Below are positions 7,575 through 54,689 of a stretch of DNA of 57,815 nucleotides, one piece after another; the stretch's first letter is position 1, and each line of letters begins with the position of its first letter. The stretch is from positions 1-57,815 of the forward strand of contig JBKPCS010000077.1 in assembly GCA_046727495.1 (NCBI GenBank), written 5' to 3'. This stretch comes from a bacterium (GTDB taxonomy: Bacteria; Verrucomicrobiota; Verrucomicrobiia; Chthoniobacterales; JAFAMB01). A model generated the notes under the pieces. It ran no database searches. It was not told the origin of the DNA and saw nothing but the letters and a program-made list of their open reading frames with translations. Position numbers and translations under genes: made by a program.

Positions 7575-8222
7575 ATGGGTTTGGAGCAAAGTCGAAAGTG
7601 GAAGAGATGGGGCTGGTTTTTGGTGAAGCTGGCCTTCGTTATTGTGGCGTCGGGCGCGACAGCTATCTGCTACCTGATAGTGCGATCACAGGATCCGTTG
7701 TACGTCCTTCGCGAACTTAAGAATTGGGCGGACTATCGACGGTTTGACGCGCTGATTGCCAATGTTGGGAAACAATACAATGTCGACCCGCGCCTGATCA
7801 AAGCCGTCGTGTGGAGAGAGAGCCGGTTCCAAGCTGACATGGTTGGGCGTCACGGCGAACGCGGTCTCATGCAGGTCTCCGAAGTCGCCGCGCGCGATTG
7901 GGCCATCGCTAAAGGGGTTCCGAATCCGTCGCCGGAACAATTGCTTCAGCCTGAACTGAACTTGGAGGTTGGCAGCTGGTACCTGGGCAAAGCTGTACAA
8001 CGTTGGAATAGCCAGGATGATCCGGTGCCCTTCGCTTTAGCCGAATATAATGCCGGCAAAAGCCGGGTAGATCGCTGGATCCGGTTGGCGGCCCAGAAAT
8101 CGAATGGGCAACCCGTAACGTCGGCAAGGTTCCAGGACGCGATCGATTTTCGTTCGACCGCCCGTTACGTCCGCACGATCCTGGCCCGGTACGATTTCTA
8201 CAAACGAAGAGGCCCGTTGTAG
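7575..8222 (+). CDS. Membrane-anchored lytic transglycosylase (SLT domain)
   Basis: N-terminal TM segment; AVVWRESRF, GLMQV, NLEVGSWYL, ALAEYNAG, TARYV. Confidence 0.92.
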   Translation: MGLEQSRKWKRWGWFLVKLAFVIVASGATAICYLIVRSQDPLYVLRELKNWADYRRFDALIANVGKQYNVDPRLIKAVVWRESRFQADMVGRHGERGLMQVSEVAARDWAIAKGVPNPSPEQLLQPELNLEVGSWYLGKAVQRWNSQDDPVPFALAEYNAGKSRVDRWIRLAAQKSNGQPVTSARFQDAIDFRSTARYVRTILARYDFYKRRGPL

Positions 8223-8352
8223 CCCCGAAAGGCTTCGGGGCTGTTATCGGTTATCGGTTTTCCGTTTTCGGTTTTCAGTTCTGGCCCCGGACCACGCATG
8301 AGCGGAGCCCCACCAACCGAAAACTGAAAACCGAAAACTGAAAACCGATAAC
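8221..8352. repeat. Composite element: GCCCCGAA hairpin plus inverted arms of degenerate (GTTTTCG)n heptamers
   Basis: Hairpin overlaps the slt stop; left arm GTTATCG GTTATCG GTTTTCC GTTTTCG GTTTTCA (8243-8280); right arm AACCGAAAACTGAAAACCGAAAACTGAAAACCGATAAC (8315-8352). Confidence 0.85.
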
Positions 8353-8366
8353 TAACGCCGAAGGCC

Positions 8367-9227
8367 CTATCGCAGCGCCCATACCGTCCGAATAACCTGG
8401 CTGGCCGCATGAACATCGTGGACCCGAAAAATGTTCGCTCCCCGCCGCATGCCGGCGACGATGCAGGCGACGGTTCCGGCATCCCGATCGTTTGGATCCG
8501 GCAAGCCCAGAACCTCTCCGATTACAGTTTTGCGCGAGACTGGCAATAGTATTGGCCGTTCGAAGGAGTGCAACCGGTCCAGGTTTCGATAGATACGCAG
8601 GTTGTCGCTCTTTTGTTTGGCGAAATCGATTCCAGGGTCGAGAACAATTGCTTCCCGGGGAACTCCGGCGGCTTCCGCTTGAGCTATCTTCTCGCTGAAA
8701 AACGTTTCCAGCGTGTGAAAGATGTCGGCGTAATATTTGTCCGTATTTTTTTGTTTCGGTGAACCGACCGAGTGCATGATGACAAGCGCAGCTCCATGTT
8801 TAGCTGCGGCCACTGCAGTCTCATCGGAGGGGAGCGCGCTCATGTCGTTCAGGAAATCGGCTCCAGCGGCCAGCAAGGTTTCGGCAACCCTTGGCCGCCA
8901 TGTGTTAACGGAGAGCAACGGTGGGTATACTTGCTCCTGGTCGATAGGCTGAACACCAGACAAACATTCGGAAAAGCGTTCAACAAATGGAAGGGTCCGC
9001 TCGATCTCTTCCGTTTCAGTGATCGGCAGCCGATTGGTGCGAGCGCTTTCGCCTCCGACGTCGATGATATCTGCTCCAGCCGCTAGCTGGTTTCGCGCCC
9101 GAACAATTGCTTCATCGATGTTTAACGTTCCGTCGTTGGAAAAGGAATCGTGGTTGATGTTCACAATTCCCATGATCAAGGGGCGTCGGGGAAATGTGAT
9201 AATCCTGTGTCGTGCGCGCAGCTTCAC
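8367..9227 (-). CDS. folP: Dihydropteroate synthase
   Basis: IMGIVNINHDSFS, IDVGGESAR, LDPGIDFAK, SRKTVIG, IFRVHDV; start overlaps the stop of the upstream gene. Confidence 0.95.
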   Translation of the reverse strand: MKLRARHRIITFPRRPLIMGIVNINHDSFSNDGTLNIDEAIVRARNQLAAGADIIDVGGESARTNRLPITETEEIERTLPFVERFSECLSGVQPIDQEQVYPPLLSVNTWRPRVAETLLAAGADFLNDMSALPSDETAVAAAKHGAALVIMHSVGSPKQKNTDKYYADIFHTLETFFSEKIAQAEAAGVPREAIVLDPGIDFAKQKSDNLRIYRNLDRLHSFERPILLPVSRKTVIGEVLGLPDPNDRDAGTVACIVAGMRRGANIFRVHDVHAASQVIRTVWALR

Positions 9228-52500: not shown

Positions 52501-53251
52501 CCCGTTACTGTGGCCGCCGACTGCTGATAATCAGTCGATGAGCGTAGACCAAGTGCGGGATGCCAAGGGGTTGATCGCTGCCATCCGTCGCGACGTTCAA
52601 TCCGACGCGGTTGCCAAACTGGCACCGGCCACCCGTCAGGCGCTAACGGAATTTTCAAAAGGACTAAACAACGTCGACGCTCTTTGTGATGCCTTGATGA
52701 GACCAGATGGTATGGCTTCGACCGCCACGGTTACCCTGATGAATGGCCAGGCCCAAAAACAGTTGTCTGGACCAGATCTCGCACCGCTGCCAACACCGCC
52801 TCCCGTGCCGACTCCCCCGAAGCGGTCGATCCTCAGCCAGCTGTTCGTAGGGGATAAACCTGCGCCTACGCCGATTCCGACTCCTCCTTACAATATACGG
52901 AACTGGAATTCGGTACAGATGAGTGGCTCGCATGTAGTACCGGTTGATACGCCGTCCGACGTGTTGCTTGGAAAGGTCCGACTAAGCGAAAATTTTCGAT
53001 TCGCACTTTATCACACGCCAACAGGGGGCGGCGGAGGAGAGTCGGTAAACCTTGGTGCGAACTGGTCGGCCCTGCGATTGCTCGGGCGCGGCGCTAAGCC
53101 AGTTGATGCTGGTCAGCTATGGCGAGTTGCGCTAAAACCTGGCGAGCCGACGGCTGTGTGGCTGCAAGTCAGCTTCGAACGCCCTTTACCGGCTCTCGAC
53201 GCATGGCCGACAATCGACAGCCTTGGTTTACGAGATGTCGTGGGACCATGA
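49559..53251 (+). CDS. tssM: T6SS membrane core TssM (IcmF)
   Basis: Two N-terminal TMs; [67 protein letters not shown]; long periplasmic domain ending NWSALRLL. Confidence 0.93.
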
Positions 53252-53432
53252 ACGACAAAAGATCTCACGCAGAAGTCGCAGAGGAAGGCAGAGGACTGAG
53301 ATCTATTGTCATTTCCTCCGCGCTTCTCTGCGGCCTTTGCGCGAAGCAAATTGAGGTTTTCCGTGGGACCCGAGACCCGGCCTGTCCGGCGAAGCCATGG
53401 CGAAGTCGAAAACTCGGAAGCCGGAACCTGGA

Positions 53433-54347
53433 ATGACTCGTTTCCAACGGACATTTCTGCGCGATCCGATTGGTGAGAAAGTCTATGCTGCGGCCTTTGG
53501 GAAACATCCGGCCTGGGACGACCACATCGACGATATTGGCCTGGTCACAGAGACCATGGTGCTGGCGAAGCAGTTGCTTTATTCCCAAGGGATCGCTAGC
53601 CAGCTAGCCAGTGGGGCATGGGACCAGATCGAGCGCGCTGGACAATCTCTGGAGTTTGACCATCGCTTCGTTTGGGCGCGGAAAGAGCAGGCGCTAGTTG
53701 GCGCCATTCATGCCTCCAGCGACGGAAAAGGAAGAGCCCGTTTCCCAATGGTCGTTTCTATCCAAGCTCCGGTTAATGGTTTAAGGGCCGTTCAGATTTA
53801 TCTTCCTCAGGCTGAGAAGCTGGGAACTCGGTGCAAGGCCGCGCTCACACGCGATGAATTTCGAGCTGCAGTTGACCTTGCCAATAAGGAACTGAATGCT
53901 TTTCGACTACTCTCGGAAACTCAACCAGGGGTTGCTCATCCCGAGGTCGGCAGTAATCCGACTGTCATCGAGTTGGCCGCCCATCTTCTGGAAGCCTCGA
54001 GGGATTCCCGTGCCAGCCGGTTTCGCTTGCCTGCTGTATCGCCGAGAGTCCGGGACAATCTCGAATTTTGGGTTGGATACCTGGGACTTCATGTGCAACC
54101 AGCGCAACCTTTTATTCTGGTTGCTGCCGCCGGAGCATTACCAATCGACCTTCGTATTGGCGAACCAGAATCAAACGACTGGTTCTGTCTTCGCGCCAAC
54201 GAGGGAGCATTTCCGATCACAAAACCGAAAGAAGCTGCCTCCCAGCGGCGTGAGCAGCAGGTAAAAGAGTATCTTGAGTGGTTCAGATTGGGTAGCGGCC
54301 CGCGACCAGCCAACCGTAGCGGGTGGAGAAGATTGTTCGGGCTGTAG
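53433..54347 (+). CDS. TagF-like T6SS accessory protein
   Basis: FGKHPAWDDH, G....SSDGKGR.RFP matches the TagF FGK.P..GDF / S.D.VGR.FP pattern; directly after tssM. Confidence 0.75.
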   Translation: MTRFQRTFLRDPIGEKVYAAAFGKHPAWDDHIDDIGLVTETMVLAKQLLYSQGIASQLASGAWDQIERAGQSLEFDHRFVWARKEQALVGAIHASSDGKGRARFPMVVSIQAPVNGLRAVQIYLPQAEKLGTRCKAALTRDEFRAAVDLANKELNAFRLLSETQPGVAHPEVGSNPTVIELAAHLLEASRDSRASRFRLPAVSPRVRDNLEFWVGYLGLHVQPAQPFILVAAAGALPIDLRIGEPESNDWFCLRANEGAFPITKPKEAASQRREQQVKEYLEWFRLGSGPRPANRSGWRRLFGL

Positions 54348-54689
54348 CAGGGGAAACGCCGTCACCGCCGTCATCGCCGTCAACGCCGAGAGCTGACAGA
54401 AAGAGATACGAACAGAAGAGCACGAAGGAAAACAAAAAAAGTGAGCGGTTTCTTGGTCTTTGCGACTTTCCGCCTTCTTGGTAGCTCCGTCGCGACAAGT
54501 TCCTGCTCGATCTCTAGCCCAGAACACGAGGCCCGAAACCAAGGATACCCATGGCCTTTCGCTGCCGGCGATGTCGACGATGACGGCGCTGTCGGCGTTC
54601 CCAGTCTACTACCATCGTGTACTACCCATCTGGCATGAAGCTGGTCATTATACCGTGAAACTGATAGGCTCGGTTCCTGTATATTCTAT

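Follow-up and report, generated by a model that had tools for sequence, protein, structure and literature searches.

The window studied here is the whole 57,815-nt contig JBKPCS010000077.1 (C77) of a metagenome-assembled genome (MAG) from a soil Chthoniobacterales bacterium (Verrucomicrobiota; 3.93 Mb, 242 contigs, 54% G+C, 87% complete). Its genes are ordinary ones, namely priA, folP, an M61 peptidase, ABC transporters, dehydrogenases and, from approximately 46351 to the end, a type VI secretion system (T6SS) cluster. The relatives of its PriA were all Verrucomicrobiota, namely soil Chthoniobacterales, Udaeobacter and Chthoniobacter MAGs, and an Rfam search of the window gave no hit to rRNA or to any further family. 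The spacers between these genes carry tandem arrays of short words, which stand alone or face one another as the inverted arms of hairpins, and it is these arrays that were analysed here in the window, in the genome and in related genomes.

Abundance and placement of the arrays

Arrays were called with Tandem Repeats Finder (TRF) at three or more copies, using one order-3 Markov genome of equal size as the control. In the window, TRF returned 61 rows, nearly all of period 6, 7 or 9 or multiples of these, at or adjoining the places listed in a preliminary description of this DNA. Most of those 32 array places were borne out by a phase-locked unit check and by reading of the sequence. Three failed, as the unit at 26790 was AACGCGA and not GTTCCGA, a TGGCATTGT-like array was present at 17548 and no repeat at 54405, and a further three (53405, 38904 and 19079) were weak, with only 2-3 units each.

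The genome-wide periodicity scan placed array density well above chance, as had been anticipated, with 172 arrays of period 6 (4 in the Markov control), 518 of period 7 (1), 178 of period 8 (4) and 171 of period 9 (6). After joining overlaps, 1102 merged arrays of period 5-10 remained, which are the basis of all genome-wide figures below, and these used 241 canonical words, the commonest being ACACTC (60 arrays), AAAACCG (55), AAACGCC (55) and AAACGCG (52). The words do not form the discrete 'alphabet' that had been proposed, for the 465 heptamer arrays chained into one single-linkage cluster at one mismatch, and eight one-mismatch clusters sufficed for 90% of arrays. GTGAGAG, singled out earlier as the one unit that did not recur, belongs to a family with 16 + 34 arrays genome-wide (AAGTGAG, ACCTCTC).

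Genes were called throughout as greedy longest open reading frames (ORFs). By this crude measure, confident coding sequence accounted for 24% of array bases and for 78% of the genome. Arrays occurred at 1.83 per kb in convergent and in tandem spacers and at 1.37 per kb in divergent spacers, and their median distance to an adjacent stop codon was 11 nt, with a lower quartile of 2 nt (n = 403). The earlier statement that they fill most intergenic spacers is true of the window but not in general, because 19 of the 33 window spacers of at least 40 nt (8000-54700) carried them, as opposed to 418 of the 1627 spacers of at least 100 nt in the genome. Only 272 of the 2204 array flanks matched the flank of another array, the other 1932 being unique, and hairpin loops within one family were unrelated and locus-specific. 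The exception to the unique flanks was the 8-mer family ACGCMAAG, which is embedded in a longer conserved element. In one loop, the 381-nt loop of a GTTTTCG/CGAAAAC hairpin at C16:2643-3104, a minus-strand sequence resembled, by eye, a tRNA gene.

Pairing and polarity of the arms

Neighbouring arrays at most 400 nt apart were treated as a pair, and a pair was scored as same-family inverted when complementary words faced each other. Of 318 such pairs, 128 were same-family inverted, 12 were direct and 178 were unrelated, so that the inverted same-family share was 40%, compared with 2.5% for random array pairs. The share fell to 16% (13/82) at 400-800 nt, and 9 of 152 pairs qualified at 800-1500 nt; this decay from 40% through 16% to near 2.5% led us to reject the idea that arrays bracket genes instead of spacers. 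The gaps of the 128 inverted pairs ranged from 2 to 381 nt (median 80), and their arms were complementary at a median of 0.905 across a median of 26 nt. When RNA folds were scored as z against shuffles, three hairpins of the window folded far below their shuffles (z -5.4 to -6.9), while solo arrays folded no better than shuffles. Among 300 sampled TRF 'singles', 17% had a degenerate complementary partner within 300 nt, while the two controls gave 1-2%. Together with the pair counts, this means that about one third of arrays serve as arms of hairpins, the other two thirds or so being truly solo, with no hairpin, so that the earlier impression of mostly inverted arm pairs is not supported.

An inverted repeat reads alike on both strands, and the choice of the word used as the 5' arm is therefore free, so that any fixed polarity is non-trivial. 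The choice was nevertheless fixed per family in 126 of the 128 pairs, for example in 15/15 pairs of AAACGCG, 10/10 of AAAACCG and 8/8 of ACACTC. The seven families that were paired in more than one compared genome all kept a single polarity (7/7), and four of them include the studied genome. The rule extended to solo arrays: 259 of 336 had the 5'-arm form at the left spacer edge or its counterpart at the right (odds ratio 11.3). Solos without a detectable partner obeyed it in 187 of 251 cases, by 101:27 next to stops and by 86:37 next to starts, the latter counts being noisy under longest-ORF calling. A composition rule was considered and rejected, because the families were split between those whose 5'-arm word has T>A (17) and those with T<A (19). 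The 5'-arm word had G>C in 21 families as opposed to 13, and the outward GC skew was only about +0.1, positive in 57-59% of arrays.

Association with TIGR02436 and GxxExxY genes

The genome has 13 loci, here termed cassette loci, with a small gene of one of two families, nine TIGR02436 and four GxxExxY (one split); 12 were testable and one lies at a contig end. Four four-helix-bundle ORFs scored 90-119 bits on TIGR02436 (cut-off 24) and gave weak, sub-cut-off scores on the Avd model of diversity-generating retroelements, and the ORFs in two further loops of approximately 430-450 nt were GxxExxY proteins (TIGR04256, 129-145 bits). An array was present within 350 nt of all nine TIGR02436 hits, compared with about 20% of random intervals, and six of the nine were bracketed by a same-family inverted pair, with a different word at each. 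Over both gene families, TRF detected a same-family inverted pair at 8 of the 13 loci and at 21 of 20000 random 330-nt intervals, and a direct search found complementary repeat-word arms with a score of at least 12 at all 12 testable loci. The arms of GxxExxY genes were 8-10-mers with the core CGCAGA, CGCAAAG or CACAGA, and those of four-helix-bundle genes were mostly heptamers. The gene association raised in the preliminary description was thus found for TIGR02436 and GxxExxY genes, which lie between arms of these words, and not for genes of the Y1/RAYT type, as none of three Y1_Tnp loci had an array within 350 nt.

The cassette arms share words and polarity with arrays that enclose no gene. 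All 17 cassette arms with a polarity known from gene-less hairpins agreed with it, and 470 of the 1102 arrays genome-wide, and 7 of 32 in the window, came within one mismatch of a cassette-arm word. At a cassette on contig C156, outside the window, the predicted RNA fold enclosed the ORF in a stem of approximately 33 bp (z -6.0).

The same association was seen in related genomes, from which 48 cassette genes with full flanks were sampled, with controls shifted by 1 kb (n = 88). An adjacent array of any kind accompanied 41/48 cassette genes and 11/88 controls, a TRF inverted pair 21/48 and 0/88, and arms with a score of at least 14 39/48 and 0/88. Every gene copy comes with a word family of its own, which changes as the protein diverges: an arm family was shared by 6/6 gene pairs with at least 80% protein identity, by 18/56 at 60-80% and by 12/427 below 60%.

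Two loci deserve separate mention. At C102:29380-31838 (L151, L185), a satellite of approximately 128 bp, made of the composite element with the ACGCCAAG word, lies on both sides of a GxxExxY gene, with an arm complementarity score of 109-118. At C136:7826-8688 (L219), AGTTTTC and AACCGAA arrays enclose two small ORFs, which resemble, by eye, a RelE/HigB-like toxin and an XRE-type antitoxin. A third type of cassette gene between wider same-family pairs was considered at four loci (L219, L220, L222 and L223) and rejected, since what they hold appeared by eye to be ordinary genes or the toxin-antitoxin-like pair.

Turnover between related genomes

The word set was common to two same-genus genomes. 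In one of them, G002, a single 35.8-kb contig is syntenic with window positions 21541-57809 at approximately 80-90% identity in most blocks (range 75-94%). Comparison of orthologous spacers, as envisaged in the preliminary description, revealed units resized, replaced or lost between congeners. Of the 21 window arrays in the syntenic block, 11 keep at least three units of the same word in G002, six keep one or two and four keep none. The heptamer array at 22923 has about five units in the window and about 14 in G002, the whole elements at 34243-34361 and 38819-38997 are absent, and the left arm at 41357 is missing as a clean 27-nt difference straight after the stop codon. Words were also swapped. 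In the tssL-tssM spacer, (GTTCCGR)5...(CGGAACY)5 of the window is replaced by AACGCCG units between conserved flanks, and at 54355-54597 both arms differ jointly, with AACGCCGTC/GACGGCGTT in the window and AACGCCGGG/CCCGGCGTT in G002. At closer range, DNA contigs from four soil runs over window positions 21001-41000 were short and broken at arrays and gave a single usable unit-size indel, a contig approximately 98% identical to the window having one additional TAGTGC unit at 22793.

Further afield, sampled 100-kb stretches of relatives carried like arrays with other dominant words and at widely differing density. Arrays per 100 kb numbered 82 in G010, 28 in the studied genome, 17 in G024, 15 in G013, 14 in G017, 9 in both G009 and G006, 4 in G021 and 2 in G022, and averaged 13 over 80 Chthoniobacterales priA loci. 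Synteny of the spacer between folP and the SLT-domain gene was found in only seven of these 80 loci, and its hairpin was kept only at the same-genus locus, L074, with a different loop.

Arrays in the window

The arrays of the window are listed in Table 1.

Table 1. Repeat arrays and hairpins of the window, in window coordinates.
Position	Element	Context
8243-8353	GTTTTCG/GTTATCG left arm and CGAAAAC right arm, 34-nt loop	Between convergent SLT-domain gene and folP (TRF, sequence reading)
10008-10044	Solo CCGTCGA array	Abuts start codon of PHP-domain gene (9224-10006, minus strand)
10112-10153	GTGAGAG/GGTGAGA array	Word family of the arms of four-helix-bundle loci C174 and C223
10356-10422	Gene-less hairpin of CGCAGAGGA-type words (CGGAGGA... 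/ ...CCTCTGCG)	Family of the arms of split GxxExxY locus C117
16670-16693	CGAGGA array (R form)	Right edge of spacer before TetR gene; complement TCGTCC at 17416-17442 beyond that gene
17367-17442	GAGTGC array (17367-17393), then TCGTCC array (17416-17442)	
19079-19276	Pair GTTATCG/GTTTTCG (19079-19103) and AACCGAA (19238-19276)	Between convergent genes
20409-20442	GAGTGT hexamer array	
21137-21169	AGGAGAC array	Family of the arms of four-helix-bundle locus C156
22794-23009	TAGTGT (22794-22813), GGATTAC (22923-22949) and CACTAG (22982-23009) arrays	
25721-25778	GTCCCATAA 9/18-mer array	Fills spacer between two ABC permease genes; kept unit for unit, same length, in G002
27132-27184	AACGCCG(TN) array	Adjoins stop of minus-strand gene 27184-27504; AACGCGA/AACCCGG units in G002
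28833-28911	Hairpin AGGAGAC x5 / TGTATTC x4	Fills spacer; fold -42.4 kcal/mol, z -6.9
29760-29784	CACTCG hexamer array	More units in G002
31028-31057	Degenerate CCCGGAA array	
32401-32545	Hairpin CCGTCCA x4.6 / ACGGAAG x11.6 behind GC hairpin	G002 loop has REP-like insertion of ~100 nt
34260-34297	Solo GTTTTCG array behind GC hairpin	Entire spacer content absent in G002
38907-39067	Gene-less hairpin of ACGCAAAG-type words (38907-39011) and CCCGGAA array (39030-39067)	Both absent in G002
41357-41511	Pair of AACGCCGNN 9-mers	Between convergent genes; right arm kept in G002, left arm not
42410-42507	Pair CGCAGATT / GAATCTGCC	Family of the arms of GxxExxY gene C47:4615-4956
43728-43916	TGAGTG array (43728-43756) and ACACTC/ACTCGC array (43898-43916)	Second array abuts PLD gene start; copy numbers differ in G002
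46214-46298	CGAGGA array joined to GTCCYATNN 9/18-mer array	Upstream of T6SS cluster
49388-49548	Hairpin GGTTCCG x5 / CGGAACC x5	tssL-tssM spacer; fold -90.4 kcal/mol, z -5.4
53264-53335	Gene-less hairpin of CGCAGAGGA-type words	After tssM; family of the arms of split GxxExxY locus
54355-54597	Pair AACGCCGTC (54355-54388) / CGGCGATGT (54566-54597; right arm also written GACGGCGTT)	Before tssA

The left arm of the first hairpin, at 8243, reads GTTATCG GTTATCG GTTTTCC GTTTTCG GTTTTCA; the hairpin folds at -66.3 kcal/mol (z -6.6) and is preceded by a GC hairpin at 8223-8241. The fold of the hairpin at 10356-10422 is weaker (-23.6 kcal/mol, z -2.2).

The T6SS cluster occupies 46351-57815, with tssK at 47333, tssL at 48691, tssM at 49493, tssA at 54690, tssB at 55783 and tssC at 56346. 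Repeat-word hairpins lie in at least three of its spacers, and the earlier report of arrays inside this cluster is upheld at 49384-49558 (the tssL-tssM spacer), 53264-53335 and 54355-54597. The called longest-ORF starts at 28866 and 49493 run into arrays, and conservation in G002 suggests true ATGs near 28916 and 49559; the gene after the hairpin at 28833-28911 thus probably starts near 28916.

A repetitive extragenic palindromic (REP)-like motif of the CGCCAAGGCTACGGCGG type, noted in the preliminary description as recurrent, has four window matches with at most three mismatches (20237, 29717, 38840 and 53386), where shuffles gave an expectation of 0.21. The genome contains 17 copies of its exact 16-mer, the motif often lies beside repeat-word arrays, and the copy at 29717 is kept in G002. 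A second palindromic element, ...CGGCGGCAGGGCCTGCCGCC..., lies at 24594-24763, inside a 930-aa ORF (22920-25712) which fuses an ABC ATPase to a permease and probably represents two genes whose spacer happens to be in open frame. The alignments with the two congeners are interrupted over this stretch; the core of the element, GGCAGGGCCTGCC, occurs 44 times in the genome and is also inserted in a hairpin loop of G002. A radical SAM/DUF3463 gene (17602-18660) had only partial matches of about 40% identity among 30 relatives and is missing from both incomplete congeners. For an HpnH-like gene, chosen as a guide to orthologous spacers, these 30 relatives yielded no close ortholog.

Discussion

We favour, at a probability of roughly 0.55, the interpretation that the 6-9-nt words are the paired and solo arms of lineage-wide hairpin cassettes which resemble the intervening sequences (IVS) of rRNA and are placed between protein genes. 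A complete cassette would comprise a small gene in the loop and, as its arms, two inverted runs of a short word, the predicted gene product being either a TIGR02436 four-helix bundle (S23p-like and distantly Avd-like) or a GxxExxY protein with a putative PD-(D/E)XK fold. Several hundred hairpins without a gene and solos at spacer edges belong to the cassette families and use the same 5'-arm word; about 30 of them are in the window. The cassette proteins may each recognise the word of their own cassette, by which family and polarity would be set in trans for the gene-less copies. Where transcribed, the paired arms would be expected to form long double-stranded stems cleavable by RNase III, by which operon transcripts would be punctuated, and the arrays would be resized by slippage in whole units. 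Of the active system which the preliminary description had placed behind the arrays, the gene-linked, family-specific and polarity-fixed organisation has been found, whereas no spacer-'writing' activity was demonstrated.

Several observations weigh against this interpretation. Some two thirds of arrays stand alone, and only 17% of sampled TRF 'singles' had a degenerate partner. The arms keep their complementarity, as had been claimed, yet position-by-position compensatory pairing is weak: permutation of unit order in one arm gave evidence of mirrored variants in only 3 of 128 pairs at p<=0.05, and same-locus arms were only 1-6 points more complementary than cross-locus arms, in 9 of 11 families, with p<0.05 in 3 of 11. 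Complementarity depends mostly on the word family and not on individual positions. In this 87%-complete assembly, 632 of the 1102 arrays match no cassette arm, among them such common words as ACACTC, AAAACCG, AACCCGG, ACCGTCG and ACGAGG, although four-helix-bundle genes flanked by AGTGCT or GTTGTCG arms occur in relatives (L207, L198). No cassette gene lies within the window, and a search of gene-less loops for gene remnants of at least 25 bits gave 1/75, an already known remnant, compared with 1/1386 in controls. Among 10 related genomes, array density was not significantly correlated with the number of cassette genes (rho 0.41, p 0.24; per Mb 0.54, p 0.11); G022, the sparsest in arrays, had neither gene family detected (E<=0.001; E<=1e-10) and G010 was the richest in both. 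No target-site duplication, identical copies or transposition event was seen, and the co-divergence of arms and genes could partly reflect orthology or shared age.

A stronger form of the cassette interpretation can be offered tentatively, as a possibility that we consider rather unlikely as it stands. Each four-helix-bundle (S23p/Avd-like) or GxxExxY protein would be the sequence-specific keeper of its own word, binding runs of about five units, determining the word that is turned to the gene edge and, by itself or together with host repair, seeding and homogenising arrays at gene boundaries throughout the genome.

Among the alternatives, the arrays could be long simple-sequence repeats born by slippage and left to drift; hairpins and cassette association would then be secondary, the small genes inserting preferentially into the loops of pre-existing repeat hairpins. 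A slippage origin for heptamers was put forward by Mrazek et al. 2007, as quoted in the available text of PMC4679880 and PMC4692102. Whole-unit changes do occur here, as the indel in the strain contig and the differing copy numbers in the congener attest. The one-mismatch word network, with its single cluster of 465 heptamer arrays, the majority of solo arrays, the failure to find gene remnants in loops and the lack of a significant tie between density and cassette gene number would all fit as well. We nonetheless regard this alternative as unlikely, since slippage does not predict the recurrence of one word at as many as 60 loci whose flanks are unrelated, a near-absolute polarity that is specific to the family and extends to solos, or an arm family that follows protein identity (6/6 at 80% or more, 12/427 below 60%). 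Nor does it predict that the word is switched jointly in both arms or exchanged between conserved flanks. The earlier argument against simple slippage accordingly stands on recurrence, polarity and joint change of the arms, and has to be qualified in that slippage by unit size takes place.

Alternatively, the host could select for structure, hairpins or U-rich runs being kept in the manner of REP elements as terminators, as protectors of mRNA 3' ends or as RNase III sites, with the words serving just as easy stem-builders. The strong z-scores of the folds point in this direction, as does the retention of an array in a spacer where the word has changed. GTTTTCG arrays often stand behind GC-rich hairpins, an arrangement that resembles the U-tract of an intrinsic terminator, and this family is scarce in divergent spacers (6/68, compared with 149/812 for all assigned arrays). 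However, arrays adjoin starts about as often as stops (409 vs 403, with start counts noisy as before), no sense/antisense bias was seen (232 vs 245), about two thirds of arrays have no hairpin and entire elements are missing from the same spacers in congeners. Structure alone does not account for a constant 5'-arm word in each family either, and an explanation of this kind seems decidedly improbable.

That the arrays are binding sites of global regulators or nucleoid proteins of the host, unrelated to cassettes, as has been proposed for Geobacter metallireducens, is in our view very improbable. Their architecture equals that of the class 1-3 sites of that organism, in which 3-5 tandem 7-9-mers are paired on opposite strands (available sections of PMC2700814), and a directional binder would suit the fixed orientation; on the other hand, a matching number of co-evolving binders would be required for the dozens of word families and for the genus-specific alphabets, and the cassette genes are the only genes found tied to the words. 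A mobile element of the MITE (miniature inverted-repeat transposable element) or REPIN kind was rejected, as flanks, loops and internal sequences are unique, Y1 transposase genes are not near arrays and no duplications were visible by eye at the junctions inspected, and a CRISPR array was rejected since the 6-9-nt units run head-to-tail without spacers, whereas CRISPR repeats measure 23-50 nt and alternate with unique spacers about as long.

Short IVS forms without an ORF are also known in rRNA. The elements described here can be compared with the ORF-carrying 23S rRNA IVS of Coxiella burnetii, Leptospira, Brucella and Xanthomonas, as far as these are covered in the consulted sections of PMC4990558. 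The IVS of C. burnetii is described there as a selfish 428-nt element in which a 28-bp terminal stem, cleaved by RNase III, encloses an S23p four-helix-bundle ORF, and which carries 2-3 tandem GACAGAT heptamers whose number varies among strains (Warrier et al. 2016, PMC4990558). The likeness lies in the S23p/TIGR02436 gene in the loop of a long stem and in the tandem heptamers of strain-variable number in the IVS arm. The elements of the studied genome differ in that they sit between protein-coding genes and not in a 23S rRNA helix, that GxxExxY is used as a second gene type, and that 13 gene-bearing loci, with an own word per copy, are accompanied by about 1100 arrays which are mostly gene-less or solo.

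Intergenic heptamer repeats have been reported in cyanobacteria since 1990, and those of the short tandemly repeated repetitive (STRR) type are said to have been described in that year by Mazel and colleagues. In cyanobacteria and Beggiatoaceae, direct repeats of the TAACTGA type use genome-specific words at hundreds of intergenic places, often near start codons; the sets lie mostly in one orientation upstream of genes, with one inverted repeat in 170 sets (MacGregor 2015, PMC4679880, in the sections consulted). They share with the present arrays the tandem intergenic heptamers and the abundance far above chance, and they differ in having one or a few words in direct sets, as against the 40% of inverted neighbours and the many coexisting words found here.

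In Xanthomonas campestris and X. axonopodis, 186 GGGAATC arrays are 89-93% intergenic, form 70-75 convergent inverted pairs and lie near the neighbouring ORF, and these arrays, like the GGGGA(C/T)T arrays of Nostoc, vary in length and sequence among close species while keeping their position (Rehm et al. 2015, PMC4692102). In the available text of that paper, no connection with mobile elements is reported and neither S23p nor IVS is mentioned (0 occurrences). Tandem intergenic heptamers in convergent pairs on opposite strands close to an ORF are thus common to both systems, which differ in that a single G-rich, G-quadruplex-capable word is used there, whereas 241 words of period 5-10, mostly without G-runs, are used here. 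Among the twelve most frequent words, three Gs in a row occur with AACCCGG alone (complement CCGGGTT), which speaks against G-quadruplexes. In G. metallireducens, elements of classes 1-3 consist of 3-5 tandem 7-, 8- or 9-mers in pairs on opposite strands at variable distance and were read as regulator sites, and GGACCGG x4 elements are also present (Aklujkar et al. 2009, PMC2700814). Several word classes per genome and paired tandem 7-9-mers thus have a counterpart in the 128 inverted pairs of the studied genome; the differences are that tens of sites per class stand against hundreds here, and that the portion of the Geobacter account available to us reports no polarity rule or link to a small gene.

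In its working, the array system would most resemble a partnership of the REP/REPIN-RAYT type with different proteins. In that partnership, a cognate gene, encoding a Y1 transposase, is flanked by its own repeat family, and many gene-less hairpin copies are present in intergenic DNA. The differences are that the arms here are tandem short words and not one conserved palindrome, that loops are unique and uncopied and that no Y1_Tnp locus was near an array (0/3). Our literature search, which left most subscription journals outside its reach, found no paper joining intergenic repeat-word arrays to TIGR02436 or GxxExxY genes. These and related names were absent from the titles and abstracts found, and searches combining Verrucomicrobia or Chthoniobacter with such repeats gave nothing relevant. 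The regularities that are new to this analysis are the arm polarity of each family, the orientation of solos to the gene edge, the arrays hugging stops, the locus-unique flanks and loops and the turnover between congeners. The arrays are best filed as an intergenic, multi-family variant of both the long simple sequence repeat (LSSR)/STRR heptamer repeats and the S23p-bearing intervening sequences.

In practical terms, such arrays break short-read assemblies, shift start-codon calls and serve as fast strain markers. Automatic annotation of array-rich genomes may over-extend 5' ends, given that several longest-ORF starts in the window enter arrays. The heptamer repeats of cyanobacteria, Xanthomonas, Geobacter and Beggiatoaceae have no agreed origin or function, and the S23p-bearing IVS of rRNA are equally unexplained. 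The shared family and polarity of cassette arms and gene-less arrays, the arm words that change with the proteins and the oriented solos turn an oddity into a testable hypothesis of protein-DNA (or protein-RNA) recognition. If each protein were indeed the keeper of its own word, the heptamers of STRR, of Xanthomonas, of Geobacter and of many uncultured phyla would, together with the rRNA IVS, be one protein-plus-word system, selfish or domesticated, with a reach comparable to that of RAYT/REPIN.

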